Positions 16,457-55,938 of a stretch of DNA of 64,000 nucleotides are shown in pieces; the stretch's first letter is position 1, and each line of letters begins with the position of its first letter. The notes below the pieces were generated by a model, which ran no database searches, was not told the DNA's origin, and was given only the letters and a program-made list of their open reading frames with translations. The DNA comes from Promethearchaeati archaeon SRVP18_Atabeyarchaeia-1. Lineage in GTDB: Archaea; Asgardarchaeota; Atabeyarchaeia; Atabeyarchaeales; Atabeyarchaeaceae. A program made the position numbers and the translations under genes. Location of the stretch: assembly GCA_037308085.1 (NCBI GenBank), contig CP147779.1:288001-352000 (forward strand). Direction: 5' to 3'.

Positions 16457-16624
16457 GGGCCTGTAGCTCAGCCAGGTAGACGAAGCGGCAAACAATGACT
16501 TCAATGATCGCCTAAAGCGTCGGGCTCTTAGCGTCAGGTTGTTAGCCTCGAGAGTAACCCGATGGCCGGGGGTTCAACTGCCTATTGCAAATGAAGTAGG
16601 CTGAAAATCCCCTCAGGCCCGCCA
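16457..16624 (+). tRNA. tRNA-Lys(CUU) with three introns (about 16480-16515, 16531-16556, 16579-16607) and encoded CCA
   Basis: Removing the introns gives GGGCCTG-TA-GCTC-AGCCAGGTA-GAGC-G-TCGGG-CTCTTAA-CCCGA-TGGCC-GGGGG-TTCAACT-CCCCT-CAGGCCC-G-CCA. BHB helices CTCT/AGAG (37/38) and TTCA/TGAA (59/60); relaxed motif AGGT/GCCT at 22/23. Confidence 0.93.
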
Positions 16625-16736
16625 AATTCTCACAAGGAAACCATGGTTTGCGCCATCTCTCAGCCAATCCAATCGGAAAGTCGATCTATCCTAATGCAGG
16701 AACATGGCGTGAGAGAAAGTCTCGAAATCCGGGATG

Positions 16737-16782
16737 GCGACTCTTCCCACCCTTGAAGGACGTGGGGTTCCTCGCAACGAGC
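16737..16782. mobile_element. Solo IS200/IS605-type end hairpin (remnant)
   Basis: cgactcttCCCACccttgaaggacGTGGGgttcctcgc closely matches the end of the tnpB element at 21986-22025; followed by ATGA. Confidence 0.6.
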
Positions 16783-16789
16783 ATGAAAG

Positions 16790-17218
16790 TCATTCACTTT
16801 CGACAAGAAGTTCGATCGAGACCTTGTTTTCTGGGTTTCTCAGTCTCTCAATGATTCTTCGATCTAGGTCTTTTGCTGCTTTGTTTGCTCTCACCATTAG
16901 CGTTCTTTCACATGTGAAGCTGCTTTTTCGACATACCATGTCTTCTCTGCTTGTTAGACGTAGCTGAGGGTCTCCTTGCCCCGTGACCTCTTCCTTCAGA
17001 CCGCATACTTCTAGAACGAGCAGAACTTTTGATGATTCTCTTCTGAGAAGGTTCTTGAAGAGGTTACTAAAATCGCTTGGCGATTTGCTTGCGTTGGCGG
17101 CAATTATACAGTCACCTTTGAGAGTGACCTCTTCCGCCTTGGTTATCTCCAGGGTTGTTCCGTGAGTTCCCCTGATGCAACTATGACCGTATGCAGTTAG
17201 GCACTCGATGGCTTTCAC
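16790..17218 (-). CDS. DUF371 family protein
   Basis: GH..I...H.TTLEITK, GDCII and RKS.F...RT motifs. Confidence 0.85.
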   Translation of the reverse strand: MKAIECLTAYGHSCIRGTHGTTLEITKAEEVTLKGDCIIAANASKSPSDFSNLFKNLLRRESSKVLLVLEVCGLKEEVTGQGDPQLRLTSREDMVCRKSSFTCERTLMVRANKAAKDLDRRIIERLRNPENKVSIELLVESE

Positions 17219-17404
17219 TTTGATTGCACCCGGCAGTTTGCCTGGATTGATCCGGAACCGTCTATGCTTTTTAATATGGCTATGGCTTATTACTATATAG
17301 CTCTGAATTCCAATTAGTTTCTCGCGCCGTGGGCTCAGTTACTCTGTCTAATAAATGGGAGAAACGGTGAAGAGGAACCGAACTGGAGTCTGTTTGTAGC
17401 GGGT

Positions 17405-18119
17405 GTGGAGTTGAAAGACTTAGAGAAGAACAAGCAGAGGCTTCTTGAGCACTACGTTGACGAAGGCATTGCTAATAGTAGCACTGTGATCAAGGCATTC
17501 ATGAAGGTTCCGAGAGAGGAATTTGTGCCGGAGGACGTCAGGGATTCTGCTTATGATGATCGCCCCCTTCCGATAGCTTTTGGGCAAACAATAAGTGCGC
17601 CACACTACTTGGGAACCCCAAGTTGGGCGAGACATGGTCATCATAATGTGTGAACAGTTGAAGCTTGAGGAAGGGCACCGCGTGCTCGAAGTGGGAACTG
17701 GTTCGGGTTACCATGCTGCGATCTGCGCCGAAATCGTTGCACCTGCCTCATCTCGGAAGCCGGGGCATGTCTACACAATCGAGAGAATAAGGTCCTTAGC
17801 CGACTTTGCTAGGGAGAACTTGAGGAGAACAGGTTACGAGGACCGCGTGACTGTAATTGTCGGAGACGGAACAGTAGGTTACAGGGAGGCCACGCCGTAC
17901 GACAGAATTCTTGTGACGGCGTCAGCGCCCAAAATCCCCGATCCTTTGGTCGAGCAGTTAGGCGACGCGGGAATAATGACGATCCCTGTTGGCGGTCGGT
18001 ACGGCTGGCAGGATTTGGTCATTATAAAGAAAATGAAGGACGGCAAGATAAAGACCGAGAACTTCGGTGGAGTAGCGTTTGTGCCCCTAATTGGAAGACA
18101 TGGCTGGGAAAACGAGTAG
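17405..18119 (+). CDS. pcm: Protein-L-isoaspartate O-methyltransferase; spliced, join(17405..17603,17632..18119), 228 aa
   Basis: [14 protein letters not shown]|[11 protein letters not shown] and FVPL motifs; the two ORF halves are out of frame until a 28-nt BHB intron is removed. Confidence 0.9.
17604..17631 (+). other. BHB-type mRNA intron in pcm (28 nt)
   Basis: Outer helix GTG/CAT, central helix CGCC/GGCG, bulges ACA and AGA, inner stem ACTTGGG/CCCAAGT. Confidence 0.85.
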
Positions 18120-18284
18120 ATAGTTGCCGGTGGTTTCGGTTCCACTAGGCAGGGCTACTCATTTTCTGCCAACTCTTGCGCTTTGCTTCTTGCGTGTTTT
18201 TAAAAGACTATATATATGGATAGGATCGAGAGTAAAGGACAATACCTTGAGCCCAGCGTTCACGGCGCGGAAAGTGGGTTGTCG

Positions 18285-19124
18285 ATGGCTGAAGAACTCA
18301 TGGAGAAGGCCTCAGATCTTCGGACTAGGGGGTCGCCTGAAGAGGCAGCGAAGCTGTACTTGCATGCAGCGATTGAATTTGAGAAGAGCGGTAAAGTTGC
18401 TGACGCTGCCCAAGCGTACAACGCGGCTGGTCTACTTCTGAGCGAGGCAGGCAAGAGTGAGGAGGGGTATAACCAGTATGTCAAAGCAATCGAGGGATTC
18501 TCAAGGCTCAATGATGAAGAGGGAAAGGCTGACTCCAGTTACAATGCTTGTGTCGCCCTAAATGATATGGGCTCCTATGAGGAAGCAGTCAAGCATTGCT
18601 CAATTGCCCTGCAACTCTATGAAAGCCTGAAAAGCGAAGAGAGGATGGCAGACGCACTCTACGGGATGGGACTTGCGTACCTTGGATCAGCCAAGTTAGA
18701 CGAAGCCCTCGGCCTGTTCAGCAGAGCACTTGAGATATGCAAAAAGATGAATAACTATGAGGGAATCATGAGCATCTCCCTCGACATAGGCAACATTTAC
18801 AAGAAGAAGGAGGAATTAGACAAAGCGCTCGTCTCGTTTAAATCGGCGCTCGAGGTGGCACGGAAGCTGAAAGATGACGCGAGCATGGGGGATGCCCTCG
18901 TCGCAATGGGAGAGGCATATGAACTTTCTGAGGAATATGGAAGATCAGCGGACGCCTTCCTTTCAGCGGCGGAAAAATACTTGAAGGCCGGAATGGACGA
19001 CTTGGCGGAGGAATACAGTAGTCGCATCGAAGACCTAATCGCAGACTTGACCGCTGTCACAGCGGAGAGAGTCAAGAAGAAAATGGAGGAGATACGCGGG
19101 AGGATTCCAAAGAAACAGTTGTGA
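18285..19124 (+). CDS. TPR-repeat protein, alpha-SNAP-like N-terminus
   Basis: Repeated A..Y..A helical TPR units; EEAAKLYLHAAIEFEK segment. Confidence 0.75.
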   Translation: MAEELMEKASDLRTRGSPEEAAKLYLHAAIEFEKSGKVADAAQAYNAAGLLLSEAGKSEEGYNQYVKAIEGFSRLNDEEGKADSSYNACVALNDMGSYEEAVKHCSIALQLYESLKSEERMADALYGMGLAYLGSAKLDEALGLFSRALEICKKMNNYEGIMSISLDIGNIYKKKEELDKALVSFKSALEVARKLKDDASMGDALVAMGEAYELSEEYGRSADAFLSAAEKYLKAGMDDLAEEYSSRIEDLIADLTAVTAERVKKKMEEIRGRIPKKQL

Positions 19125-19144
19125 GGAACGGATTCCAGCTCTCT

Positions 19145-19669
19145 TCAAGGGTTCATCTTACCGAAGATTCTCTTCGCGATGCTTGTGAATGCACTGTTAA
19201 TCAATTCACCAGTCTTGGCACTAGTCTCGAAGAATTCGGCATTGATCTGCGTAGCCTGAGTCGCACCGTCTTCTTTCTTAACCGACCTTTGGCTGTCGAG
19301 ATCAGTCTTGTTGCCAAGTAGGGTCAGAGGGATATCTCCGCAAATGCCCTTGACCTCCTTAGCCCACTTGGGTATTACTTCGAACGTGTTTCTGTCCGCA
19401 ATGCTGTACACTAAGACCGCAGCCCTCGCACCTGGATAGTAGAATGACCTTATCCTCATGAATTGAGCTTGCCCACCTAAGTCCCACATTTGGAGCTTTA
19501 TCTGCTGGCCGTCAATATTGAGGGTTTTGACGGCGAAATTGGTCCCGATAGTCGTTATGTATTCGCCTAGAAACCGATCTTGTGTATATCGCAATATAAG
19601 CGAAGTTTTCCCGACTCCGCCTTCTCCCACCACGACAACCTTAAACACGAACTTGGGAGACTGGAACAA
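19145..19669 (-). CDS. Rab-like small GTPase (Asgard eukaryotic signature protein)
   Basis: GEGGVGKT, TIG, IKLQMWDLGGQ, NKTD and ETSAK; no C-terminal prenylation Cys. Confidence 0.92.
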   Translation of the reverse strand: MFQSPKFVFKVVVVGEGGVGKTSLILRYTQDRFLGEYITTIGTNFAVKTLNIDGQQIKLQMWDLGGQAQFMRIRSFYYPGARAAVLVYSIADRNTFEVIPKWAKEVKGICGDIPLTLLGNKTDLDSQRSVKKEDGATQATQINAEFFETSAKTGELINSAFTSIAKRIFGKMNP

Positions 19670-19745
19670 GGTTTTGTGACCCCCTCACTTATTGAACAAT
19701 AGACTGAAAGGGTTGTTATATGGTTTTCTGGTCAAGCTAATTCTC

Positions 19746-20573
19746 TTACTCCGCATTGTCACTTATATTCTGTTCTCTCATTAAAGGCTTCTCTTTGCCA
19801 TCATCGCCTTGGACATCCTTCAGGTAAGGTGAGGTCAGGATCTTCTTTGCGCTCTCAACTATTGTTGGTCCTATTCCCTTCACATCTGAGATTGGACCTG
19901 AAAGGCGCCTTGTTTTGCCAGTTTTGGACTGAAGTATTTCAGCTTCAGCTATTTGCCTGAATACATTGTATGGCGTCTGAGCCTTTGAAAGTAGGCTGTC
20001 TGCGAGTGTCACGCCAACGTTTGGGAGACCGCATATCAGGTACTGCTGCTGCTGGGCAAGCGTAAGCGTCTTTTCCTTAGGTCTTATTACGATTGGGCGC
20101 TTGACCTTTACTTGTTCAGAGTACGCTAAGCGCTCAATGAATCTGGCAGTATGCTTTGTATCTGGGGTGGGAACTATTGAGATCCTGAGTTGCACAGCTA
20201 GACTCGTCATTGCCCCCCAGATTGAACTTTCGTTTACCTTTCTCATCTTGAAGATGATCGGCATGTACCCCTCTAGAACTAGTATCGGGATCTCGTACGC
20301 ATCCTTGAGCCTGGAGCACTCATCGAAGAGCCTGTTCGTGTAAATAGAACTCGCAAGCTCGTTTACGCTCTTCCTCTCGACAGCTACGCGATCTGAAACG
20401 ACATAATCTGCAACGCTTAGCTGTTTCTCGACAACATTCACATCAAGCTCTCTCAGATATTCGCTAACCCGTGAACGCAGTTCCCGGTTATCAACGAAGA
20501 CTGTCACTCTTCCTGAATTTGATCCTCCGCTTCCTTTTGCGTAGGAGTCTAGAGTATCCTGATTCATTCTCAC
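19746..20573 (-). CDS. Stand-alone ERCC4/XPF-family nuclease
   Basis: VDNRE, ADY and VERKS catalytic motifs; C-terminal HhH (PNVG, KGIG). Confidence 0.88.
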   Translation of the reverse strand: MRMNQDTLDSYAKGSGGSNSGRVTVFVDNRELRSRVSEYLRELDVNVVEKQLSVADYVVSDRVAVERKSVNELASSIYTNRLFDECSRLKDAYEIPILVLEGYMPIIFKMRKVNESSIWGAMTSLAVQLRISIVPTPDTKHTARFIERLAYSEQVKVKRPIVIRPKEKTLTLAQQQQYLICGLPNVGVTLADSLLSKAQTPYNVFRQIAEAEILQSKTGKTRRLSGPISDVKGIGPTIVESAKKILTSPYLKDVQGDDGKEKPLMREQNISDNAE

Positions 20574-20676
20574 CCACTTTCCTCACTACTTCGTGAACGT
20601 GCGTCATATTTAAGAAAATGGGTTTGGAGAACCTCTCGATCTTGGAGAAGCAGAAGCGTGGAGAGCTCTCTGGATA

Positions 20677-22033
20677 GTCAGTTACCCACTGCCAAAGCTT
20701 GTGGGCTTGCAACTCGGGGTTGTCTGGCGCGGCCTTTCAAACCCTTCACCTTGCCAAACGCGCCTACTGACGGAGGCGTTCCCCCCAGGAAACTGGTCCA
20801 TCTTGTCGGCTCTTGATGTGTCCTGTGTTTGGGCCGCCCTGAGGGCGATGTTGAGGCTCGCCACGCGGTCTCGGTTCGCCTCGAAGCCGCATGCCCTGCA
20901 CCTGAAGTAGGAGTAACCAACCCAGTTCGTCTTGCTCGTGCGCCTACAGTAGGGGCAAGCCTGGGACGTGTACCTGGGATCAACCTCGACGAGCAGCACG
21001 CCCTGCCTCGCAGCCACGTATCTGAGGGCGTGTCTGAGGAAGCCGTAGGGGGTGCGGTTCACCTTCCTGCGGCTCTTCGCGCTCCACTCGCCTCGCTTCT
21101 TCCTGAGGTGCCTCAGCTTCTCCACTACGATGTTTGCGCCGAGTGCTTTTGCCTGCTGCACGATCTGGTTGGCGATGAGCCAGATGCTTGTCCGCACGTA
21201 GTTACTCTGCCTCTTGCCAAGGCGCTTGAGCTTGAGCCCCGCCTTGCTCCTAGACGATGTATCCCTCCATGGCTGGAGCGCTGTTCTACTTTTCTCGAAG
21301 TTGAACTGCGTTGTGGAGACCTCCTGCCCAAGGTAGGTCTGCTTCAGGACGCCGCAGCTTGGGCCTATGACGGTGGTGGCGATCCTCGAACTGTTCACGT
21401 CCACTCCCAGCCAGTTGGATTTCACCTGAGGTTCTGGCGTCTCCTTGGAGAGGACGGCGAAGAGCTTTATGCTACTCTTCATGATGATGATGATGCTCGG
21501 CTCCTAGCCCTGAGTCAAGTGCTCTTGGAGGCGCTGGTATGCTCCATCCCTACTTATCGGCAGGCCGATTCTCTTGTTGCTAGCTCTCAGTGTCAGCACG
21601 GGGTTGCCCCTCCTGGTCTCCCTGAAGCTGAAGAGGCGCGCGTCGAAGCGGACGACGCACTTCTCGACGACGCTGCCGCCGCTGATGGTTTTCCTTGCGC
21701 TCCACGCGTAGCTTGTGGCCTCGATGATGAGCTGGGATGCCACTTGGTGCCTGCCTCTTAGTGCCGTGTAGGTTTTGTGGTGGAGGTCGGCTCTGCTCTT
21801 GGCGCCGCCAAGGTAGCTGAGGGCCTCCTTCACGGTGGCGAGGAATGTGGTGTAGGTTTGCTTGAGCATTCTCCTCTTTGCTTCTGTGGGTTCGAGGAGG
21901 TTGAGAGGTAGGCACTTTCTCATGGTATCTCCAAAAGGATGTTAGGGGAGCGCGGTATTTAAGGCTCCCAATTGGAGTCTCGCTGCGATTCCTCCCACCC
22001 CTGACGGGATGTGGGCTTCCTCGCAGCGCCGAT
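20677..22033 (-). mobile_element. Non-autonomous IS200/IS605 (IS1341-like) tnpB element
   Basis: Right end GTCAGTTACCCAC...GTGGGCTTG at 20677; left-end hairpin CCCAC...GTGGG at 21994-22015; no tnpA. Confidence 0.8.
20682..21923 (-). pseudogene. tnpB: TnpB interrupted by one in-frame TAG (21504-21506)
   Basis: The two ORFs are in frame (LTQG*EPSIIIIMKS). RuvC GVDVN / VEKL / NRD and Zn finger CPYC..CRAC are intact. Confidence 0.85.
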
Positions 22034-22160
22034 GTGAGAATCGCAACCGCAAAATAGTGAAGGGGGACACGTGGAACCGCAAACCCTTATCCATAGCTTT
22101 CTTGCGGGTTTTTGGTTAGGCCAAGGCGGCGCTCGGATGCGAATGGATTACGCCGCAGGT

Positions 22161-22595
22161 CTATCTCTTAGCGTTTTTTCTTTTGTGCCGGACCTTTGGA
22201 GCCGCCACTTTACGGGATCTGACCTTCTTGTGGCGTACTCTTGTTTTCGCAGTGTACCCCATGGCTTCGAGTTTCTGTCTTACTCTCTGCCTTTCGTCCT
22301 CTTCTGCCTCTTTCTGCATTTGTTCCTTCAAAGGCAGGAGCTGTCTGTTTACGTCGAATAGCTTCAGCAAGTACTGCTTGACAAGCTTGTCATGTTGCCT
22401 TGCCGTCATCTTGGAAGTGTCGTATTTTGTTTCTAGCTGTTGTATCTTGCTGCGCAGGTCGTCAGCTTCCTTCGTAAGGGCATCAACTTTCTCAGTCATA
22501 CCTGGATTATCTGGAGCGTTAATTGGGCTTGCTGCAGGTTCGGCTGCTAATAGAACTTCGTTTCCGGAAATACCATTACTGCTTCTATGCGGCAT
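22161..22595 (-). CDS. Hypothetical coiled-coil protein with steadiness-box-like segment
   Basis: LETKYDTSKMTARQHDKLVKQYLLKLF resembles the C-terminus of the Vps23 ORF in this window; basic tail. Confidence 0.55.
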   Translation of the reverse strand: MPHRSSNGISGNEVLLAAEPAASPINAPDNPGMTEKVDALTKEADDLRSKIQQLETKYDTSKMTARQHDKLVKQYLLKLFDVNRQLLPLKEQMQKEAEEDERQRVRQKLEAMGYTAKTRVRHKKVRSRKVAAPKVRHKRKNAKR

Positions 22596-22871
22596 TGGCT
22601 CTATTTTTCCCCCATCTTGCAGCTTTCTAATCCGCTTTTCTTTACTATACTGGGTGCTAGAAGCTTTATGAGCATTTCCAATTCAATGCGAAGTCCACAA
22701 TACTTGACGACTTAGGAGGCGATTTTTCCCTGACTGAAAAGACCATGTCGCGAGAGGGAAGGTTCAACCGGATTTTTATATCTATAATCATCTCATAGAA
22801 TCAGACGCCGGTTTTTTAATATTGGCAATGTTTATTTAAGGATGTCCCGCTTGTATTACCGGGACTGAAAA

Positions 22872-23327
22872 TTGAGTGAAGTTCCTCATGTGAGCGCCCC
22901 AGATGCCGGGAACCTGACTCGTGAGGCTCGCATATGGCAGCGGGACGAGCTGCTTCTGATTCTAAAGTCCACGGGCAGATGCCTGCCCTTAGAGGACATA
23001 GCCAAGTTCATTGATTTCCTTGAAACTGTTCTGCCTGACGACAAGATAATCAGATTCTCAGGAGTCCATCATGTCAGCAGGCAACTTGAGCAGATGGCGA
23101 AGTCAGAGCTCATCGAGAAGCGTGGGGTTTGCTACAAGATAACCGAGAAGGGCAGCAAACTTGCGGATGAAGCGGAGCTATCAATAGAGGATAGCGAGGT
23201 AACTAATAGGGCCTGGGCTACCGTGAGGAGCGCGCTTGCTAGCCTACCCTCAAGCAAGCTGGCTTGGGACTCCCATCTGAACGCGACAACGAAGCGAATT
23301 GGAGAGGAGTCTCAGAAGTCAGGATAG
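22872..23327 (+). CDS. Hypothetical winged-helix protein
   Basis: LEQMAKSELIEKRGVCYKITEKG wing motif. Confidence 0.6.
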   Translation: MSEVPHVSAPDAGNLTREARIWQRDELLLILKSTGRCLPLEDIAKFIDFLETVLPDDKIIRFSGVHHVSRQLEQMAKSELIEKRGVCYKITEKGSKLADEAELSIEDSEVTNRAWATVRSALASLPSSKLAWDSHLNATTKRIGEESQKSG

Positions 23328-23430
23328 CTTCGATCGGCGAAGACCTTCGCCCGACCAGCCGAATCAAAACTTATATTAGCCCTAGCAGGAGAGAACAACA
23401 TTCTAGCAACCATGAGAAGGAACAGCGGAC

Positions 23431-24015
23431 TTGATTTCAAAAAGAAAGGACAAACTGGCTAGGTTTTTCCGCCCCTTTGCGAAGATGCTCGAGAAGATGC
23501 ATCTAACACCCAATGCGGTTACCTTTCTTGGGTTTCTTCTTTCCTTGCTGATCGTTCCCTTCACGATCCTGTTGAATTATAATCTGGCTGGAATCATGAT
23601 CCTCATCACGGGGCTCTTTGACGCCTTGGACGGAGCTCTAGCAAGATTGACCGACAAGATCACTGCGCGAGGTGGCTTCCTTGATTCGGTTCTGGACAGG
23701 TACTCGGACGCCATAATAATGATAGCGATAATCTTTGCAGGCCTCTGCAACGTTGTCTGGGGATTCGTTGCATTAATCGGTTCACTGCTAGTAAGCTACT
23801 CGAAGGCACGCGTGGAGGCGTTTGGAGTAAAACACTTTGTTGTGGGATTCGCCGAGAGACCCGTAAGGCTCCTCATGATAGCTCTGGCATTCTTCCTCGA
23901 AAACTGGTACCCAAAGACACTAAACTATGCGATCATAGCTCTGGCGATCCTTACCCACCTGACTGTTCTGCAGAGAAGTATAATGGCAAAAGACGTGCTG
24001 TCTGGACGCTCCTGA
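23431..24015 (+). CDS. CDP-alcohol phosphatidyltransferase (archaetidylinositol phosphate synthase-like)
   Basis: DALDGALAR...GGFLDSVLDRYSD signature. Confidence 0.92.
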   Translation: MISKRKDKLARFFRPFAKMLEKMHLTPNAVTFLGFLLSLLIVPFTILLNYNLAGIMILITGLFDALDGALARLTDKITARGGFLDSVLDRYSDAIIMIAIIFAGLCNVVWGFVALIGSLLVSYSKARVEAFGVKHFVVGFAERPVRLLMIALAFFLENWYPKTLNYAIIALAILTHLTVLQRSIMAKDVLSGRS

Positions 24016-24123
24016 CCAATGCAGAAGCGGAATCGAGGAGGCTTAGATGCCTCGGGCATCCATCTGGAAATACGATTTCATTTTCTCAAAGAATGAGGGA
24101 TCACCGAGGATCGCCCTGTCTTC

Positions 24124-24471
24124 CTAGGTAAGGTCGAATGCGTTCTTCATCAGTTTGGTGAGAATTATCTTTGCAGCTTGCATTGCACGTTCGCCGTCCT
24201 TCGTTATCACGTAGTATTTCCTGTCTGGTTTTCCCTTGGCCTCGCTTTCGGCTCTCTTGCTTTCGACTAGTCCATCCCTAGCCATCTTGTAGAGTATTAC
24301 ATATGATGTGACCGTTGCGGGCTTGAACCCGAATCTCTTGTCTATCATCGCGCGGACCTCGTATCCATATCTCGGGCTTTCCTGAAGGAGACGTAGGATG
24401 TATATCCAGAGGTTTTCACTAGTCATTTTCGCTACGAACCTTCGTAGAGCCTTGAATTCATCAACAGTCAA
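24124..24471 (-). CDS. PadR-family transcriptional regulator
   Basis: PRYGYEV and RKYYVITKDG motifs. Confidence 0.88.
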   Translation of the reverse strand: MTVDEFKALRRFVAKMTSENLWIYILRLLQESPRYGYEVRAMIDKRFGFKPATVTSYVILYKMARDGLVESKRAESEAKGKPDRKYYVITKDGERAMQAAKIILTKLMKNAFDLT

Positions 24472-24604
24472 GAACCTGCCTCCAATGTAAAGATCAGTAC
24501 AGTGGGATCGTCCCTGCGATTGATCTCAAAGACTGTTTGTATTTTCATCTAAACGAGTAATTTAATCTTGTGACATGGTTTGTACCAAAAAGACCCTTTC
24601 CTTC

Positions 24605-25219
24605 TCACACCCTTGGGCGTCTCCGATCAAGTTCATCTTGGGTAAGAGTGATAACTTGGGATGAGAGATAGCTGAGTGGCCCCACGCTTACCCTTCTGGC
24701 GCGTAATCCGTCTAACATACTCTCTTCCTGCGGACTCAGCCCTTTCTGGTCGCCCAAGACGAAAGTATCATCGCATTCGAGATCGAAGTTGACATTTCTA
24801 ATATCTTCACCCCTTTCATGAAGGTAGTAGAGCCCACCTGTAGCCAAACTGTGATGTAATAACTCGGCAAAGGATTCCCTTTCGATCGAAACGCCTTTCC
24901 AATAGGGGACGGGATGCTTCTTCCCACTTTCACAGCCGTCGCTCAGGACTCTTCGTAGTAATCCTGCTACTGCTATCTCGGAGAAAGGTATAGTTCTGAT
25001 TTCTTTTCCGTCAAATTCCAGACATAGAGGTGCTCTGGTCCCGCCTTCAAGCACCGCGATGAAGGTGGTATCGGTCCTTATTCGCTGATTATCGAGAAGA
25101 GAGGCGATGGAGCATCTGCAAACCACATCGAGTCGACCGCTAGAGGACGGCAGATCCTTCAAGCTGAAGTCCCCCGAAGCGTGTGCCTCACTTGCCTTGA
25201 GTATGAAGATGCGGGTCAA
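24605..25219 (-). CDS. trmY: tRNA (pseudouridine54-N1)-methyltransferase (SPOUT)
   Basis: FSLKDLP..GRLDVVCRC, FVLGDQKG and SVGP motifs. Confidence 0.88.
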   Translation of the reverse strand: MTRIFILKASEAHASGDFSLKDLPSSSGRLDVVCRCSIASLLDNQRIRTDTTFIAVLEGGTRAPLCLEFDGKEIRTIPFSEIAVAGLLRRVLSDGCESGKKHPVPYWKGVSIERESFAELLHHSLATGGLYYLHERGEDIRNVNFDLECDDTFVLGDQKGLSPQEESMLDGLRARRVSVGPLSYLSSQVITLTQDELDRRRPRV

Positions 25220-25507
25220 CAGATGACTGACCTCCCTTCCCTATGGAAATGCCGTCCCGCGCACTAACCAACCGACAAATCAGATCGGGATCTACTCAAC
25301 ACCGTGAAGGCGGAACTTCGAATCTATATACGCGCTATGATGATCGAGTGATTGATAGGTTTGACCATTGGGGGCGGCATTCTAAAGGTTCCCAAGCTGA
25401 GACAATAACACTATAATGCTTATATGCAAGCCTAAGCCTATTGAAGTTATGATACAGAGTTCTGTTTGCCCATGGGTAATAAGAACTCTCAGATGGTGTT
25501 GACTACA

Positions 25508-25792
25508 ATGACTAAGAAGAGAAGAAGTCGCGGAAGATCCAAAGGTGGATCTGGTAGAAAAGGTCTGGTTCAGTGCTCTAACTGTGGTACGCTAGTTCCC
25601 AGAGACAAGGCGAAGAAGGTAACACGTTGGGTTTCCCTAGTCGACCCTGTGATGGCGAGGGAACTCAGGAAGCAGGGAGCCATACTTCCACATGAGAAAG
25701 TGATGAAGTACTATTGTGTATCCTGTGCCGTTCACTCAGGGGTCTCCAAGGTCAGGGGCAGGGATGAAAGAAAAGATCATTCGCGGTACTAG
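25508..25792 (+). CDS. rps26e: 30S ribosomal protein S26e
   Basis: MTKKRRSRGR, CSNC..VPRDKA and YCVSCAVH motifs. Confidence 0.95.
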   Translation: MTKKRRSRGRSKGGSGRKGLVQCSNCGTLVPRDKAKKVTRWVSLVDPVMARELRKQGAILPHEKVMKYYCVSCAVHSGVSKVRGRDERKDHSRY

Positions 25793-25846
25793 TACAATTT
25801 AGGGGCTATTGCCCCTCCGGTTTCTGTCCAGATTTCTTAAGTCGTT

Positions 25847-26794
25847 GTGATTAGGCCTGTTGCCAATCAAGACTCAATTGAAGGATTGGTGTCAGTGCTC
25901 GACATTGCCGTATTCGGCCACTTCGCTATAGACCAAGTGGAAAGGGATGGAAACGTACTTCCTCCTTCTCTGGGTGGAACTGTTACCTTCTCCAGTCTAG
26001 CCGCTGCGAGGTTAGGGGCTAAAGTCGGAATCGTCTCAAAGGTAGGACCGGATTTCAGAGACGACCATCTTCTCGTATTCGCTCGAAGTGGAATTGATGT
26101 TTCGGGAGTGAAGAAGGTCAAAGCCCCTACGACCAAGTATAGACTGCAGTACACGGGGGAAGAGAGGAATCTAACGCTCCTGTCAAGGTGTGATCCCATC
26201 AAACCTGAAGATGTCAGGCACCTTCGGGGCAAAGCCAAAGCTGTCCATCTAGGTCCAATAGCTGGTGAAGTTCCCCTTGAGACAGTCAAGGAGGTTGCCA
26301 AATGGAGCACCATTGTCATGCTTGATCTTCAGGGGTTCGTCAGGAAGTTCGACAGGAATGGCAAGGTCTCCCTCGAAAGGAATCCTCAGCTCCTGGAAAT
26401 AGTCAAGAGAGCGATGATAGTGAAGTCTGCTCTGCAAGAGGGGGAGACCGTAATGAATGTTTCTGGATTTGAGGAGGTCGCTTCATCGTTTCTCAATATG
26501 GGATGCAAGATCACAATCGTGACCCTTGGCGGGAAAGGGGCCTACATTTCCACCTGTGAAGGAGAATCTCTTGTCGTTCCTGCAATCAACCCCCGCAGGA
26601 TCACTGATCTCACTGGAGCAGGAGATGCTTACGCGGGTTCATTTCTCGCAGAGTACCTGAAGACCAAAGATCTCAGACGTTCAGCGATAATCGCAAGCTC
26701 AGCGGTCTCATTCAAGGTTGAAGGACACTCAACGTCAGGATTCGCGTCAAGAGCAGACATAGAGAAGCGAGCCAGGGAGTACCTCGAACAGTGA
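25847..26794 (+). CDS. PfkB-family carbohydrate/nucleoside kinase
   Basis: GG...AARLG and DLTGAGD motifs. Confidence 0.9.
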   Translation: MIRPVANQDSIEGLVSVLDIAVFGHFAIDQVERDGNVLPPSLGGTVTFSSLAAARLGAKVGIVSKVGPDFRDDHLLVFARSGIDVSGVKKVKAPTTKYRLQYTGEERNLTLLSRCDPIKPEDVRHLRGKAKAVHLGPIAGEVPLETVKEVAKWSTIVMLDLQGFVRKFDRNGKVSLERNPQLLEIVKRAMIVKSALQEGETVMNVSGFEEVASSFLNMGCKITIVTLGGKGAYISTCEGESLVVPAINPRRITDLTGAGDAYAGSFLAEYLKTKDLRRSAIIASSAVSFKVEGHSTSGFASRADIEKRAREYLEQ

Positions 26795-26957
26795 CCGCAA
26801 CCGTCGAGTATAGGATCTAGCTTGGCCAAGAGGCAGGGAAATCCCACGACTCAGAAAAACTGTCGGAAACCAAATCCAGAATAAGCCTAACGGTTAGTTT
26901 AATAAGTCATGAGGACAATCAAATGATTCAATATGAAGTTCGGTGGGTAGACTGCAA

Positions 26958-27254
26958 ATGAAGATTAGTGATCTAAAAGCCGGCATGCGGAAAGTTGATC
27001 TTAAAGTCAAGATTGTGGATGTGGGAGAGCCCAGAGACGTGAATACAAAGTTTGGGCCCGGTCGCGTTGCGACTGCTACAGTGGCAGATGAAACTGGACA
27101 GACGAAATTGTCTTTGTGGAACGATGACATTGAAAAAGTCAGCCAAGACGACGTCATCGAGATAAAGAATGGTTACATAACCGAATTCCGAGGGGAACTT
27201 CAACTAAACGTTGGGCAATACGGGACAATGAACATAACTAAGGAAAAGGACTAA
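26958..27254 (+). CDS. Single OB-fold ssDNA-binding protein (SSB/RPA)
   Basis: MKISDLK, VADETG..KLSLW and LNVG.YG motifs. Confidence 0.88.
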   Translation: MKISDLKAGMRKVDLKVKIVDVGEPRDVNTKFGPGRVATATVADETGQTKLSLWNDDIEKVSQDDVIEIKNGYITEFRGELQLNVGQYGTMNITKEKD

Positions 27255-27461
27255 GCGCTCCGCGGAGGCAACCTCTCGTCCTGCGGCGCAACTTCGACGG
27301 GAGCCCCGCGAATCCGGCTTGAGCTGTTGAGAGAAAGGGTGCCACGAGCTACTTCCTGTTTTTTGCCGTCATGATACTTGAATTGTCGTATTTGCTCATG
27401 TTGGTCTCCAATACTGAGGGGTTGTTGCCTCGGTTTTGTCTGCTCTGAATGTCAGTTTAGC

Positions 27462-28346
27462 CTACATTTCTGTCAGCTCTTTCGGTGGAATGAACCTAGT
27501 TCGAGGGTCTTCGAGGATCCTATCCAGAAGTCTAATAGTCTCAGGCTTGTCCTCTGGGAACTTCGCCTCGAAGTCAACGTAGTCCGAGACGTGGTCATTG
27601 TATATCTCGCTATGAACATCCAGACTTGCCAAGATTTCACGCTGCTCTTTTATGACCTCGTACGGTGTCAGCAGCTTGAATCTGCCTTCTTTGACTTCCT
27701 GAAATAGAGGCGTGTTTGCCAATATGTTGAGTGTTCTAAACCTGATGAAGTCCGGATCAGCTTCGTTGAGCACCCTAGCGGTTTCCTTGGCGTGTTCCTG
27801 TGTGAGACCCTTTCCCCCAAGCCCCAAGAGTACGTAGAGGGAGAATTCTATTCCAGCATTCTTTATCCTTCGTCCAGCTTGGACAATGATCTTCGAGATA
27901 GTTCCTTTTTTCATTAGCTTAAGGATTCGGTCACTTCCGCTTTCGAGTCCCATATGTATTCTTCTCAAACCGGCCTTCCTCAATTGCATAAACTCGTCAG
28001 GCGTCTTGGCTATGGCGGATCTCGCCGACGAGTAGCACGTTATTCTTTCTAGCCTTGGGAAAGTTTCTGATATTCTATTCAGCACTTTCAGCAGTAAACT
28101 TGTTGGGAGACAGGTCATGTCCGATCCTGTGAGGAAAACCGTGCTATAGTAATCATGATAAAGCTTCTTCGCCACATCAATCTGCTGAAAGATCTCTTCT
28201 AGTTCGAGGACCTTGAAGCCTTCTCTTTGCTTATAGATTCCGCAGAATCTGCATTGATTATAGTTGCAGCCTTGAAATACTTCTACGAGTAGGCTGTGCG
28301 CCTCAGACGGGGGTCTTATCAGAACTCTGCCCGATCCCATAACCAT
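27462..28346 (-). CDS. Radical SAM protein
   Basis: RPPSEA, CNYNQCRFC and GLESG motifs. Confidence 0.88.
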   Translation of the reverse strand: MVMGSGRVLIRPPSEAHSLLVEVFQGCNYNQCRFCGIYKQREGFKVLELEEIFQQIDVAKKLYHDYYSTVFLTGSDMTCLPTSLLLKVLNRISETFPRLERITCYSSARSAIAKTPDEFMQLRKAGLRRIHMGLESGSDRILKLMKKGTISKIIVQAGRRIKNAGIEFSLYVLLGLGGKGLTQEHAKETARVLNEADPDFIRFRTLNILANTPLFQEVKEGRFKLLTPYEVIKEQREILASLDVHSEIYNDHVSDYVDFEAKFPEDKPETIRLLDRILEDPRTRFIPPKELTEM

Positions 28347-28556
28347 GTGATTCCACCTTGCTCCCTGCTTCCACGAACTCTAACCTTCTGCTTCACTACC
28401 CAACCAAGCTAGCAAGGTTTAAAATGATGAGTTGGAGTTCCTCTATTTAACATCTGGGACTCTATTCCTGGAAGAGCTTTGCGCACAGATAAATGATTGC
28501 CAAATCCTGCTGAAAGCTAGTGTAACTGTAACAGTTGTCGTTGGAGGCTTTAACAG

Positions 28557-29987
28557 ATGAAGATCAAGAAGGAGGAAGACTTCAGTTCCTGGTATGATGA
28601 AGTGCTCCAAGAGGGAGAGCTTGTCGATATTCGGTATGGCGTGAAGGGTTTCATCATCTACAGGCCGAACATAATGCGAATCATTAACCAAGTATATCGG
28701 CTATACGATGTCGAACTCGAGAAAACCGATCATAGTCCTTGCCAATTTCCAGTAGTTATTCCCTTGAGCTACTTCAGGAAGGAGTCTGCCCATGTTCAAG
28801 GCTTCGAGGATGAAGTATTCTGGGTGACTAAGGCGGGAAGCCATGAGCTGGAGGAACCCTTGATACTGAGGCCGACTAGCGAAACTGCAATCTACCCTAT
28901 GTACTCCCTGTGGATCCGGACCTACAGGGATTTGCCAATAAAATATTACCAGGGAGGATCAGTTTATAGATATGAGACCAGGGCGACGAGACCGCTCCTC
29001 AGGGGTAGGGAGTTTCTCTGGATCGAGACTCACACGGCGCATGCAAGCCTTGAAGACGCGGAAGACCAAGTCAAGCAGGATATGAGCATCGCGAACAAAG
29101 TCGTGTACGAGAAATGTGGCATTCCTTTTCTAATGCTAGATAGACCTGAATGGGACAGGTTTGCGGGAGCACAGAGAACTTATGGGTTCGACACCCTGCT
29201 TCCCGATGGGAAAGCACTTCAGATAGGGACTACGCATCTGTTGGCTGACAACTTCTCCAAAGTATTTGATATTCAGTTCGAGGGCAAAGATGGAAGTAAG
29301 AGCTTTGTGCAGCAGACATGCTATGGCCCTGGAATCTCACGAATCGCTGCCTCCGTAATCTGCATTCACGGCGATGACTATGGTTTAGTCCTACCTTTTG
29401 AGATGGCCCCTGTCCAGGTAGTTGTTGTCCCAATAGTTTTCAAAGAAGGGGAGAAGACAGTTATCGAAAAATGTGCCGGGATCGCGAAGCGACTTGAAGA
29501 ATCTGGAATCAGGGTGAAGTTTGATGATCGAGAACAATCGGCTGGATCCAAGTTCTATTACTGGGAGCTAATGGGTGCGCCGGTAAGGGTCGAGGTTGGC
29601 CCCAAAGAAGCACAAAGCCAAACGGTGACCCTGTTCAGAAGAGACAATAGGACGCGTCAAAGTTGCAGCGAGGAAAATCTGACCGAAGTAATCCTGAAGG
29701 TTGGAGCCGACATATTGAACTTCCTAAGAAAGAAGGCTGAGGATCGCCTAAAAAGGAGCATAACTTGGGTGAATACAAAGAAAGAGCTACTGGATTCAAC
29801 CAAGAAGGGCGGTTTCTTAAAGCTCAACTTCTGTGGAAGGCAGGAATGCGCAGACGAGATGAAGAGTCAGACTGGGGGTTTCGAAGTCAAAGGGACTTCC
29901 TTTGAGTCTGATGAGAAACCAAAGGGGAGTTGCGCATGGTGCGGTGAGACAGCGACCCAAGTAGTGTACGCCGCGAAATCATATTAG
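28557..29987 (+). CDS. proS: Prolyl-tRNA synthetase (archaeal/eukaryotic type)
   Basis: LRPTSET, REFLW.E.H and the C-terminal AKSY. Confidence 0.96.
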   Translation: MKIKKEEDFSSWYDEVLQEGELVDIRYGVKGFIIYRPNIMRIINQVYRLYDVELEKTDHSPCQFPVVIPLSYFRKESAHVQGFEDEVFWVTKAGSHELEEPLILRPTSETAIYPMYSLWIRTYRDLPIKYYQGGSVYRYETRATRPLLRGREFLWIETHTAHASLEDAEDQVKQDMSIANKVVYEKCGIPFLMLDRPEWDRFAGAQRTYGFDTLLPDGKALQIGTTHLLADNFSKVFDIQFEGKDGSKSFVQQTCYGPGISRIAASVICIHGDDYGLVLPFEMAPVQVVVVPIVFKEGEKTVIEKCAGIAKRLEESGIRVKFDDREQSAGSKFYYWELMGAPVRVEVGPKEAQSQTVTLFRRDNRTRQSCSEENLTEVILKVGADILNFLRKKAEDRLKRSITWVNTKKELLDSTKKGGFLKLNFCGRQECADEMKSQTGGFEVKGTSFESDEKPKGSCAWCGETATQVVYAAKSY

Positions 29988-30125
29988 ATGGGACATCGGC
30001 TGTAGCCAGCGGTAGGATCATAGGATAGCTAATAAAGGTACGACTGAATAGAGTGATTGGAACACGATACTTGTATTCTGATGAAGGTAGAACCTCAGAT
30101 TGAAGTGGAGGTGCAGTGGCTCTCA

Positions 30126-30488
30126 ATGTCATTATATGAGTTGCTAGTAAAGAGGCTTGGAGAAGCAGATAGATACATCAAGGAGGACGGAAAGATCAGA
30201 GGAGCCCTCAGGATGATAGGCAAGATCAAGGTTAATGTCAAAACCACTGATACAGCAGAGAACGTCGGAGCTACAATAAGCACCGACGGGGTGGATTTGT
30301 CCAAGGAAGCAGTTGAAGGACCGGCTATCACAATCACGGGAACTAGCCGAGTCTTAACGGACTTGATTCAGAATCCCGACCGGGCCAAATTCGATGAAGC
30401 CCAACGACAAGAGAAAATAAAGTTGGAGTCACACGGCCTTAAAGGGAAGCTAGTCATGTCTAAGGTGAAGGATCTTCTTTCGGCATGA
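30126..30488 (+). CDS. Hypothetical protein (possibly SCP2-like fold)
   Basis: ORF after a GGAGGTG ribosome-binding site; the fold is a guess. Confidence 0.55.
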   Translation: MSLYELLVKRLGEADRYIKEDGKIRGALRMIGKIKVNVKTTDTAENVGATISTDGVDLSKEAVEGPAITITGTSRVLTDLIQNPDRAKFDEAQRQEKIKLESHGLKGKLVMSKVKDLLSA

Positions 30489-30628
30489 GAGACCAAAACT
30501 AAACAAACCTAGAAGCCAACCTTAAGGAAAAGTATTCGACGTTCGTAAGATCGCAATGAGAAGGACAACTATAAAAGGAAACCTCGTATTATTATGGATT
30601 GAAAGACCTCGCCCTGAGGATCCTTATC

Positions 30629-31198
30629 ATGAGCAGCCCATCAGAACTAGTCGACATTCTGCAGAATGTGGCGAACATTTTTCTCCGAGCTGTCGAATCC
30701 ATTGAGAACCGAATGATGATGATAGAGCAGAGGCTCGACCAATTAGAGAGAACGTCCGCAGGATCTGGAGCATACGGGGCACCGCCTCCTAGTAGGGGGG
30801 CACCAGTTGCACCAAGCCAAGCCACGCCATCCGTGATGCAGGATAACCGGAGGGCACCTCCACCAATTATACCCCCGCCAGCGCCTCCTCAGCCACAGGC
30901 CTACGCTAGTCCTCAGCCGCAATGGGGAGCCCCAAGACAGGACAGCTACCCTCAGCCACCTAACCCGGGCTACCAGAGTAGACCACCAGCGCCCTCGTAC
31001 CCGCAGCAAGGCCAACAGCAGCAACCGCAAGGGTATGCTCCACAAGGGTACGCGCCACAAGGTCAGTCTCCTCCACAACAGCAGGGACCGCCTGGACCCA
31101 GACCGCCCGCTAATCCTTTGAACATCCGTCAGGAGATGACGGGTGAACTCAAAGATATTTTCGCAAGGATGAGGGCGCGTGCAGAAGGAAGGCAGTAG
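30629..31198 (+). CDS. Coiled-coil + Pro/Gln-rich + C-terminal amphipathic helix protein
   Basis: N-terminal heptads, PPPIIPPPAPP, QGYAP repeats and C-terminal IRQEMTGELKDIFARMR. Confidence 0.7.
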   Translation: MSSPSELVDILQNVANIFLRAVESIENRMMMIEQRLDQLERTSAGSGAYGAPPPSRGAPVAPSQATPSVMQDNRRAPPPIIPPPAPPQPQAYASPQPQWGAPRQDSYPQPPNPGYQSRPPAPSYPQQGQQQQPQGYAPQGYAPQGQSPPQQQGPPGPRPPANPLNIRQEMTGELKDIFARMRARAEGRQ

Positions 31199-31282
31199 GT
31201 TGGTCACCTGGCTACAAGGCAGATGGGGGATTTGAGCGTTGAGCGCTCGTCCTCACGATTGAAGTTAACACCTGTAGATAAT

Positions 31283-32707
31283 CTAGAAGTAATCAGATAG
31301 GTTTCTTTGAACGGGTTGTTTCTCCTTTTCCTCCGTCGCTGGCTTCCTTTGCCGTTGCTGCTCTTCACTTTCTTGGCTGATCTGGATGGAGCGATCAGCC
31401 CGAGTATTCTCGTCTTCAAATATTATGGGCTGCCCATATACTCCGTCGTATCCTGGCCTGAACCTTATCTTCTTCTCCCTCACCCTCAAGATCGCTTCCG
31501 ACACCCTATCTCCTGAAACTGATGCAATCTCACTTCTAGGCGCCTCAAGCAGAATGTAGAGTTCATTTGGGAACCTCTTGAGAAGTCTCCCATATTCCTC
31601 CCACACAGCCTTGGAGAAAACCTCCTTGAGTCCTAGCGCGATGGATATTATCTCTTGAAGAGGGATCAGACTCACATATGGGATAGCTCCTTGGGGCTTG
31701 AAGCCATCCGCCCTATCAGCAAGTTCCTCGACGCGATCCAACACACCGACCGTCAACTTCCTTCCACAGACTGGACATATCTCATGGCACCTGCTGGATT
31801 CCTTTGGGCCAAGGACGACTTTGCAAATCCTGTGCCCAGTGTAATGATACTTCCCGTAACTTGGATCAACTTCAATTGTCTCGATGAATCTTGCTGGATC
31901 TTTCTTTCGGATTGTGTCGACTATCTCCTTGTAGGTCACATTTCGCAGTTCGAGGACATTTGCCTCTCTGCCTACACGGTAAGGCCAAGGACTGTGAGAA
32001 TCGCTGTTGCTCATCAGGGTGAATCGGTCCAAACTTGAAAGACGCCAATTCATCGCAGGGTCTGAACTCAAGCCAGTTTCAAGCGCGTGTATGTTCCGCG
32101 TCTGATCCTGAAAACAATCCTCAATCCTATCAAAACCCGACCTAGACCCAAACAAACTGAAAAACGGCGTCCACACGTGTGCTGGGATTACCTCATTCCA
32201 CTGGTCAATCTCTGTTATGATCGCCGTGAGTTCTGCCGCAGTTACCTTAAGCTTTGGTCTTCCATCCGAATTGAGGTCACCGTATTTGGAGATTCTATCG
32301 TTTATCTGCTTCGCAACTTCAAGGTTCGGGCATAGAACTAGAAGGTGAATTCTCTTTGCCTTTTCCTCCCAAGTGAACTCTGTGTCAACTTCTCCAGTTA
32401 CCATGAAAAGGGTCGATCCCGATACGCCCCGACCGGTCTTTAAGGTGTACAGCCCGCTCTTGTCAACCTCGGAAAGGGACGATTCACATTCCGTGAGCCA
32501 TCTCGGCGAGGTAAAGTGGAGACTCACCTACCTTAGCTTGCCGAAGCATTACATAATGCAGGTCGAGTTGTCTCCTGTGCCGAGAAGACTCAAACCCTTG
32601 ACCCTAGCCTGTCTTTCAAGATTGACCAGATTCATGTCTTGGCTGGTAGCCGCCGAATACTTGCTATGAATATGGAGATCTGCGACGACCCTCAGATGGC
32701 TGTCCAC
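31283..32707 (-). CDS. endoQ: Endonuclease Q / PHP-domain Zn-finger nuclease; spliced, join(32707..32570,32515..31283), about 456 aa
   Basis: Exon 1 has DLHIHSKYS...LGTGD; exon 2 has FTSPRW, PAHVWTP, ETGLSSD, NSDSHS, GREAN, GKYH and CPVC. Confidence 0.88.
32516..32569 (-). other. BHB-type mRNA intron in endoQ (54 nt, contains in-frame TAA)
   Basis: Central helix GGAG/CTCC, bulges ACA and ACT, inner stems ACTC/GAGT and ACCTGC/GTAGGT. Confidence 0.85.
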
Positions 32708-54000: not shown

Positions 54001-54176
54001 ATAATAGTAATATCAAAGCGGAATATATCTCATTCTCTCAACAAAGGCCGACAGCTACCAGTAAGCGCAACTGGTAGTACTTAGAGAAGATCAGCGGAAT
54101 ACGAGACCTCTCTAGAGGTGATCGACCTAAGACCAACAAAGCATGGAACCCTCGTCAAACATGATAGAAAAAGAAA

Positions 54177-54353
54177 CTATCCCAGTGTGCTACTAATGTC
54201 TTCACCTTTGACTTCTGACTCGGGGAACTCGCTCCCACAGAAAGGGCACTTAACATATTTACAGCCGAACGATGATGATGGGCAGCCCCCACACGCGAAT
54301 GTTCTCCCATATGAAAGCGCAAATGATCGTTTACACTTTGGGCAAGTTACCAT
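54177..54353 (-). CDS. Small multi-CxxC zinc-finger protein
   Basis: CPKC, CGGC, GC and CPFC; AGGTGA ribosome-binding site before ATG 54353. Confidence 0.7.
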   Translation of the reverse strand: MVTCPKCKRSFALSYGRTFACGGCPSSSFGCKYVKCPFCGSEFPESEVKGEDISSTLG

Positions 54354-54414
54354 GGCTGACTCATCACCTTGGCACCTGAAAAGGATCAACAAGTATTAAT
54401 GCTTTCTTGAGAGG

Positions 54415-55938
54415 GTTTCAATCTACGTAGGCATAGGTAGGTATGCATCAGCGTACCTATCGTATTCCACGTAGATCTGGGGCTTCACCTCATCATGTAG
54501 GAGCCTCACGAGTTCATCAGCACCCTTCCGCTCCGCCCCCGTCAGGGCGTACCCACCCACGAGGAGCGTGGGCAGGATGGCTTCATCCCACCGCTGCTTC
54601 CCGCGGGGAACGCCCTCCATCCTCAGGTACAGGTTGATGGCTGCGTTGAGCTGCCTATCAATCCGCAGGCCACAGTTCCCGCACTCGAAGACCGCTCCTC
54701 TCAGGTCTTTGCTGATCCACCCGCATCTGGAGCATGTCTTCGATGAGTACTGTGGGGGCACCTCGACGCCTCCTGCAAGCCTCCTTATTCCACGCCAATC
54801 CGTTCTCGCTACTCGGCGGTTCCACTTCCTGGAGCGCGTGTACAGCTTCTCCTTTCTCAGCGCCTCGAAGCCGCTCCTCTTGGAGAGCACGCGGATCGCC
54901 CTCGCAATCTCCACCTGGTGCTTCCTTGCACGGTTCCTCTCCCTTCTTGCGTACTCTGCGAGGACTCTCTTCGCCCTCTTCGACTTCGAGGCTTTCCTCT
55001 GCACGCTGCGCCTCTTCTCGAAGCTCGACACGTGCACCGAGGCTAGCCTCCTCGTGTCAATCTTCACCCAACCAGTCTCAGGACTGTACCCATCCATGGA
55101 TAGCATGTTCGAGTCCCACGCCACCGCCTCAGCAGTTCTCTCGTCCTCCTCGTCCTTTCTCTCCCCCTCCAATACATGAATGGGCAGGTGTATCTTGTCG
55201 GGCGTGATGACTGGTTCTCCTATGCCCGCGGAGGACACGTTGTCGGGCAACTTGAAGTAGCGTTGGGAGAGGTCGATGTAGACGAACTCACGTGGCTTCA
55301 GGGTGATCCTGAGCGTGTCGCCCTCAAGTTTGAGGAGGGTTTGCTTGACCTGTAGGAAGAGCCGCCCCGCGCGCGGACACGCCCTCTTCCTCTCACCCTT
55401 CTCATAGTTCCTCTTCCAGGAAGCCATGATGCTGAAGGCTGTCTTCAAGGCGGAGTCAACCCAGTGCGCAGCATAGCACCACTCTTCTAGGCACCCGTCT
55501 CTCAACCTCCGCTTGAAGGCATTGTCCTTCCTGTAGCGAGGGTAGAGCCTATGCTGCTTCTTGCCCCTGATCTGGTGCTTCTTCCACTCTGCCGTACGCC
55601 AGATGCACTGCAACATGGTGTTGAGGATGGAATTCTAGGCAGCCATTAGGCCGTTGAGTGCTTCGCCTTGGTTATGGCTGAGTGAATAGGTCCTTAGCGC
55701 CTTCAGCAACCGCCATATATTCGTGGGTTCTCATCCTCTGAGGCTTCTGGGTCTAGGGGTTCAGCGGACACGTCTTCAGTGTCTTCTCCGCCACGCGGTC
55801 TTCACAGGTGGGTTGTCCCTTCCTCGCCACGTCCGCAGTGGACAGGAGCGTCTCTTCACCAGTACTACTGTCCGAGGGTTCTCAATATAAACGACCACCC
55901 TCTTACGTACGCCTACTTATGCCTACGAACCCTGAAAC
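54415..55938 (-). mobile_element. IS607-family element with internally deleted serine-recombinase tnpA
   Basis: Imperfect end inverted repeats (GTTTCA-n5-CGTAGGCATA.GTAGG); tnpA relics ETLLSTADVAR and RMRTHEYMAVAEGAKDL overlap the tnpB start. Confidence 0.75.
54423..55709 (-). pseudogene. tnpB: TnpB with in-frame TAG near the N-terminus (55635-55637) and RuvC-III Asp to Gln
   Basis: LLKALRTYSLSHNQGEALNGLMAA*NSILNTMLQCIW; AWDSN, GFEAL, CSRC..CGNC and DRQLNAA motifs. Confidence 0.8.

Follow-up and report, generated by a model that had tools for sequence, protein, structure and literature searches.

The closest described relative of the introns discussed here is the bulge-helix-bulge (BHB) intron in the cbf5 pre-mRNA of Crenarchaeota (Watanabe 2002; Yoshinari 2006; Yokobori 2009, PMC2738675). 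It is a short intron at a conserved motif of a protein gene, has been gained and lost patchily among relatives and is removed by a hetero-oligomeric splicing endonuclease. The cbf5 intron was still given as the only case in 2018 (PMC5829648), and in 2025 it remained the sole archaeal coding-sequence case cited (PMC12397907). No EndA-type splicing of coding sequence beyond crenarchaeal cbf5 (PMC2738675) was found in the literature, subscription journals aside. A stretch of 64,000 nucleotides (the window) from the Asgard archaeon SRVP18_Atabeyarchaeia-1, comprising bases 288,001-352,000 of a genome assembled as one contig of 2,808,651 bp (CP147779.1), contains five inserts that are very probably genuine archaeal BHB introns, predicted to be spliced by the endonuclease EndA and the RNA ligase RtcB. 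Three of them lie in a tRNA-Lys(CUU) gene and one each in pcm, encoding protein-L-isoaspartate O-methyltransferase, and in the repair gene endoQ. The genome encodes the same type of endonuclease as that acting on crenarchaeal cbf5. Unlike the crenarchaeal case, the host is an Asgard archaeon, at least eight more genes are interrupted besides pcm, endoQ and cbf5 itself, and the pcm intron is common to five families. Mechanistically these would be introns of the same kind as those of cbf5, and what is new is their number, conservation and lineage.

Two other systems bear on the comparison. Multi-intron tRNA genes are known from Thermoproteales and from Atabeyarchaeia and Freyarchaeia, with more than half of the tRNA genes carrying multiple introns (PMC11291895, bioRxiv 10.64898/2026.10.13.758758); in Atabeyarchaeia and Freyarchaeia introns are present in 92-95% of tRNA genes (PMC11291895). 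Both studies cover tRNA genes alone and neither reports introns in protein genes. In the IRE1-dependent splicing of HAC1 and XBP1 mRNAs, too, proteins alone and no spliceosome remove a short intron from an mRNA, which alters the frame, with ligation by RtcB in metazoans. IRE1 is a different nuclease, however, a kinase-RNase that recognizes twin stem-loops, not the BHB motif found here, and it is regulated by stress. The likeness is an analogy of outcome and not membership in the same system.

The cut register applied to all inserts was derived from the second intron of the tRNA: on each strand, read 5′ to 3′, four helix bases are followed by a 3-nt bulge, which is cut after its second base. 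A strict BHB consists of a 4-bp central helix, two 3-nt bulges on opposite strands and at least one adjoining helix. As read raw, pcm comprises two open reading frames (ORFs) on the forward strand in different frames (17405-17653 and 17595-18119) that correspond to the N- and C-terminal parts of the protein. Exon 1 (17405-17603) ends with GQTISAP and the C of a His codon and matches Pfam PCMT at 2-59 and NF010549 at 3-63. Exon 2 (17632-18119) provides the AC of this codon, continues with MVIIMCEQL to the stop and matches PCMT at 61-208 and NCBIfam NF010549 at 65-214. The 28-nt phase 1 intron between them (17604-17631) forms a strict hBHBh′ structure with the central helix CGCC:GGCG, bulges cut at AC^A and AG^A, a 9-bp inner stem containing one mismatch and a 3-bp outer helix. 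Joining the exons rebuilds the His codon (C/AC) in GQTISAPH/MVIIMCE and opens a continuous frame of 227 aa. The residue missing between the profile matches of the two exons is the split His codon, and coverage of the joined product is contiguous. When every motif lying up to about 60 nt from the break in homology is considered, the top one scores 37 compared with 25 for the next best, and its length of 28 nt is exactly what the alignment requires. When random genome windows were searched with no length requirement, three of 400 had a best BHB score reaching the pcm value of 37. The truncated 82-aa ORF of exon 1 is on record as a called protein, in keeping with the expectation that annotation misses such introns.

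The pcm intron is conserved well beyond the window. A survey of the phylum yielded a pcm match in 121 of 151 genomes. Among the parsed loci, an insert of 25-32 nt occupies exactly this site in 14, from families f1, f7, f8, f14 and f18, and 21 are uninterrupted (ISAPHM...), as are the TACK-archaeal homologues. Introns of the same kind are present in protein genes of other Asgard lineages. Across 13 aligned intron sequences 91.2% of the cells are paired, as against 31-51% when the partners are slid by 1-3 columns. Nine pairs have changed on both sides, among them all eight pairs of the inner stem; the first of these is C:G in some sequences and U:A in others, and the central helix CGCC:GGCG becomes CACC:GGTG in two genomes. 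The covariation score was reached by none of 500 shuffles. Compensatory change of this sort is a prediction of selection on an EndA substrate and would not be shown by a decaying insertion. As a separate observation, matches to the pcm loci of family f4 (e.g., G026:C1:2274026-2274466, G073 and G096) begin only at query residue 11-12 and several of these loci contain one in-frame TAA, a hint that in this family the gene is interrupted elsewhere, close to where exon 2 begins.

The endoQ gene lies on the reverse strand. Exon 1 (32570-32707) has 46 codons, extends from DLHIHS to GTGD and matches residues 3-42 of the P. furiosus EndoQ (E = 5e-6) and TIGR00375 at 2-39. Exon 2 (31283-32515) runs from FTSPRW to the stop and matches residues 78-384 of the same protein (E = 8e-50). 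They are separated by a 54-nt intron (32516-32569) with an in-frame TAA and a relaxed BHB of the HBh′ type (helix GGAG:CTCC, cuts AC^A and AC^T). One of three equivalent boundary placements fits the register, giving the joined product LGTGD/FTSPRW. The inner helix is strong, with ACTC:GAGT followed by six further pairs and a hairpin capped by CUUCGG. The intron is found only in the three genomes of the Atabeyarchaeia family, at the identical site and with lengths of 54, 53 and 41 nt, and the same cut rule produces in-frame GTGDFTSPRW and GTGDFTMPRW in the two relatives. The exons are 68% identical and open across the three genomes as the intron varies in length. These lengths differ modulo 3, which rules out an in-frame insertion with read-through of the stop codon. 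The comparison of the three sequences is the decisive evidence for the predicted endoQ intron. In every other family with a findable motif, endoQ continues without a break from GTGD into a conserved aromatic motif, which is FTHP(K/A)W in the closest of these families. In a different part of the gene, endoQ of several other Asgard families (L029/G018, L036/G008, L037/G028 and L047/G025) is broken or has an in-frame stop near query residues 210-230; these breaks may represent separate introns located at another position.

All five inserts lie where the original prediction had placed them, and its statement that both mRNA introns block translation is borne out: unspliced pcm shifts frame and stops at TGA (17651-17653), and endoQ stops at its in-frame TAA. 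Since both genes are broken when unspliced, the inserts could be pseudogenizing insertions, frameshifts or assembly errors, and pcm and endoQ could be dead. This explanation is largely refuted and hardly credible any longer. The genome is a single 2.81-Mb contig, 14 assemblies made independently share the pcm interruption, whose changes are compensatory and whose flanking exons are intact and conserved, and the endoQ exons have stayed open and similar in three genomes despite the variable intron length. In addition, the boundaries of the inserts match the BHB cut rule to the nucleotide.

A second explanation dispenses with RNA splicing and holds that ribosomes cross the inserts by translational bypassing or programmed frameshifting, or that each part is translated on its own and the polypeptides then assemble. 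In phage T4 gene 60 ribosomes are known to bypass about 50 nt, and a GTG codon within the endoQ insert opens the downstream ORF. What covaries in pcm, however, is the helix geometry specific to EndA and not a pair of take-off and landing codons. The split in pcm falls inside a codon, and the first exon of endoQ has just 46 aa and holds the metal-binding motif DLHIHS, which belongs to the same domain. The same type of motif also interrupts the tRNA located 800 nt upstream, for which translation plays no part. Bypassing, frameshifting and assembly from parts are thus highly improbable.

The tRNA-Lys(CUU) gene (16457-16624, forward strand) has an encoded CCA and was recognized by ARAGORN on an intron-deleted construct. 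Intron 1 (16480-16515, 36 nt) lies in the D-arm and has a relaxed BHB with the central helix AGGT:GCCT and cuts at AG^A and AA^A. Intron 2 (16531-16556, 26 nt) occupies the canonical position 37/38 and forms a strict BHB, with CTCT:AGAG as its central helix, cut sites at TA^G and TA^A and the anticodon stem as its outer helix. Intron 3 (16579-16607, 29 nt) is located in the T-loop at about 59/60 and adopts a strict hBHBh′ fold with the central helix TTCA:TGAA, the 5-bp inner helix GCCTA:TAGGC and the T-stem as the outer helix. Deletion of 16480-16515, 16531-16556 and 16578-16606 produces a 77-nt tRNA-Lys(CUU) with a perfect cloverleaf in ARAGORN; excision of 16578-16606 is a valid alternative for the third intron, and the strict BHB rule puts it at 16579-16607. 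ARAGORN detects no tRNA in the unspliced precursor or in the raw window, and Rfam detects none in the raw window. A combinatorial enumeration of triple excisions with ARAGORN was abandoned in favor of the direct construct as it returned hundreds of spurious 'tRNA-Ser' solutions. The arrangement of introns in the D-arm, at 37/38 and in the T-loop agrees with the published picture of multi-intron tRNAs. Inserts in the D-arm often lack the canonical motif and escape standard tRNA finders (bioRxiv 10.64898/2026.10.13.758758).

The enzymes needed for splicing are encoded in the genome. There are two genes of the tRNA_int_endo family (PF01974). The product of one (at about 202.6 kb of the genome), the putative alpha subunit of EndA (209 aa), has the A. 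pernix catalytic subunit 3P1Z_B as its best match (5e-46), retains the Tyr/His/Lys triad and aligns across the crenarchaeal-specific loop (VRKPKTFDF compared with VEKPRGADF). The other, at about 624.3 kb, is a beta-like paralogue of 241 aa that lacks the catalytic His and resembles structural subunits. RtcB is present as one intact gene of 490 aa. The loop and the two-subunit type support an EndA able to cut relaxed motifs. The relaxed specificity of EndA that had been inferred for this lineage is therefore probably right; it is not new, as the (alpha-beta)2 EndA with the L1 loop has already been published for Asgard archaea and linked to broad specificity (PMC5829648).

In the proposed mechanism, the tRNA-Lys(CUU), pcm and endoQ transcripts would fold so that each splice site is presented in a bulge of 3 nt that adjoins a 4-bp helix. 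A heterotetrameric EndA, with a catalytic alpha subunit carrying the crenarchaeal-type loop and a non-catalytic beta subunit, would cut after the second base of the bulge at both sites, and RtcB would ligate the exons. Full-length PCM and EndoQ would be encoded by the spliced mRNAs alone; splicing would thus be obligatory and probably constitutive. The structure is strict in pcm and in tRNA introns 2 and 3 and relaxed in endoQ and tRNA intron 1. Cutting after the second bulge nucleotide results in an intact cloverleaf, the pcm frame and the endoQ frame in three genomes, compensatory substitutions are found in pcm, and both an endonuclease and an RNA ligase are encoded.

Introns of this type are predicted in other protein genes of the genome. 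In a homology-first scan, intact ORFs of a 1.42-Mb relative (G003) served as tblastn probes and collinear pairs of matches with a frame break over a short gap were collected. The scan recovered pcm (28 nt), cbf5 (41 nt), valS (31 nt), ahcY (34 nt), glyA (38 nt), MTA phosphorylase (35 nt) and gatE (41 nt), together with a RuBisCO-like gene containing two breaks of about 22 and 28 nt. The cbf5 intron splits the codon of the catalytic Asp. NCBIfam coordinates are contiguous over the breaks in all four genes scanned (glyA, MTA phosphorylase, gatE and the RuBisCO-like gene). The top-scoring BHB has the required length in pcm, cbf5, gatE, ahcY and the 28-nt intron of the RuBisCO-like gene, and in glyA it is the second-best motif that does. 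The gatE motif has a score of 40, reached in one of 400 random windows. Two further genes contain inserts of 49 nt. In rpl39e the insert is a strict hBHBh′ whose excision restores VPTWI/VVKTNRKVRTHP, and in RIO2 excision restores GVGKE/SDVY and the outer and inner helices are good. Altogether 11 protein genes, nine of them outside the window, hold 12 introns. The idea that tRNA-type splicing extends to several mRNAs is thereby upheld. The expectation of many introns per genome holds to the extent that more cases exist genome-wide and about a dozen are documented; the 'tens' that had been extrapolated are not demonstrated. The scan is insensitive and missed endoQ because its first exon is short. 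Of about 1,000 genes with a probe roughly 1% are split, and the true number of introns could be two or three times higher.

Most breaks fall within highly conserved motifs. This placement may reflect ascertainment, since breaks can be found only where conservation is high. A real bias is also plausible: half of the BHB consists of exon, and conserved codons would keep it stable. The idea that the introns are mobile was rejected, as the intron sequences have no further copies in the genome.

The scan produced one false junction, nuoC/nuoD (at about 938,475), which can be taken as a negative control. The two genes are distinct here and fused in the relative, and no BHB of fitting length is present at their junction; nuoC and nuoD lie adjacent at about 937,169-938,975 on the reverse strand and correspond to a single fused ORF in G003. 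In-frame extras of 198-237 nt (at 956,315, 1,563,591, 2,072,478 and 2,458,036) were also set aside; no good BHB was seen in them and they are probably insertions or divergent segments. At 456133-456185 of the source genome (reverse strand) a small gene has a +1 frame change where G003 has a continuous ORF of 120 aa (about 725,131-725,491). Frameshift, sequencing error and recoding are possible explanations, and the change is not a BHB intron. Two genes of G003 contain BHB inserts of their own. An actin-like gene (about 535,700, forward strand) has a strict 34-nt insert with the helix GTAC:GTAC, cuts at TC^A and AA^A and a score of 37, and a gene resembling the glycine-cleavage P-protein (about 827,296) has a 29-nt insert with the helix CCCC:GGGG. 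Judged from these inserts, the reference relative is not intron-free.

Several points weigh against reading all of these inserts as BHB introns spliced by EndA and RtcB. In tRNA intron 1 the inner helix adjoining the bulge looks weak when the sequence is read, which fits the published remark on D-arm inserts (bioRxiv 10.64898/2026.10.13.758758). The 3′ cut of endoQ (AC^T) lies within a 10-nt strand of an internal loop, closed by a 7-bp exon-exon helix, and not in a clean 3-nt bulge. A competing, register-shifted 6-bp helix (GGAGAC:GTCTCC) is 0.3 kcal/mol more stable than the BHB-constrained fold of endoQ. Covariation in endoQ, seen in three related genomes only, is no more than suggestive: an A:U pair of the inner stem is replaced by G:C, and an A:U pair of the central helix by G:U. 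The introns of valS and MTA phosphorylase and the first intron of the RuBisCO-like gene pair over only 3 bp in the central helix, where the outer position is mismatched, and the central helix of RIO2 is poor. A scan starting from the motif gave no signal either. It covered about 550,000 motifs with a 4-bp helix and 3-nt bulges on both strands and kept those whose excision joins two open, coding-like frames; in three versions it found no excess over controls in which the joins were shifted out of frame by 1 or 2 nt. This approach was dropped as a test and is taken as evidence neither way because chance motifs and gene junctions swamp about a dozen true cases. Of the genome-wide check that had been proposed, the homology-first form succeeded in finding further cases and the BHB-first form did not rise above its frame-shifted controls. 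Finally, the actual cutting and ligation in the cell, and the identity of the enzymes that act, are inferred from sequence.

With respect to the setting, the nearest relative in the genome collection is Candidatus Atabeyarchaeum deiterrae (Atabeyarchaeia-2, CP147780.1) of the same GTDB family, and one relative from a further family carries the name Baldrarchaeota. Metatranscriptomes exist for the wetland source site (PMC11291895). The G+C content of the window is raised at 20001-22000 (0.55) and 54001-56000 (0.54) compared with about 0.49 elsewhere, and Rfam finds no RNA family in these two segments.

The introns could be real and spliced by EndA and RtcB and yet be removed only conditionally, making splicing a post-transcriptional switch for repair enzymes comparable to the action of IRE1 on HAC1 and XBP1. 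Such a switch had been part of the original prediction. In its favor, neither unspliced mRNA can be translated past its intron, RtcB belongs to the ligase class that acts on metazoan XBP1 (PMC8718801), and the near-isoenergetic alternative fold of endoQ could in principle make cleavage tunable. However, the sequence contains no sign of regulation. The motif is a BHB and not the stem-loop pair of IRE1, and the IRE1-type RNase domain (KEN/RNase, PF06479) had no match in the genome in a search whose control set was without a positive. Most of the genes with introns have constitutive housekeeping or metabolic roles (valS, gatE, rpl39e, cbf5, glyA and ahcY) and do not form a repair regulon, and pcm and endoQ lack introns in most relatives; the intron is therefore dispensable for their function. 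The regulatory switch is thus unsupported and unlikely. The special link to repair does not survive the census either: the other genes are valS, gatE, glyA, ahcY, MTA phosphorylase, cbf5, RIO2, rpl39e and the RuBisCO-like gene, and that both genes of the window encode repair enzymes looks like a coincidence. Constitutive splicing by EndA and RtcB remains the favored reading. An even broader proposal is that mRNA splicing by these enzymes dates far back as a level of gene expression throughout the Asgard phylum and that its efficiency is tuned, conditionally licensing the translation of intron-bearing mRNAs including those of repair enzymes. It is suggested by the occurrence of the pcm intron in five families and must be regarded as improbable. 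If true, the lineage from which eukaryotes arose would have had a precursor of regulated mRNA splicing that depends on proteins alone.

In the textbook view, archaeal protein genes are uninterrupted, with cbf5 as the single documented exception. Here about a dozen introns in ordinary genes, encoding a ribosomal protein, metabolic enzymes and two enzymes each of translation and repair, are predicted to need tRNA-type splicing. Gene calls truncate or split real proteins in these genomes, and metabolic reconstructions and phylogenomic marker sets may miss genes as a result. If the introns are spliced, the archaeal splicing endonuclease acts in vivo on a wider range of substrates than has been assumed. 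The closest archaeal relatives of eukaryotes would then tolerate interrupted coding sequences, which bears on the origin of mRNA splicing.

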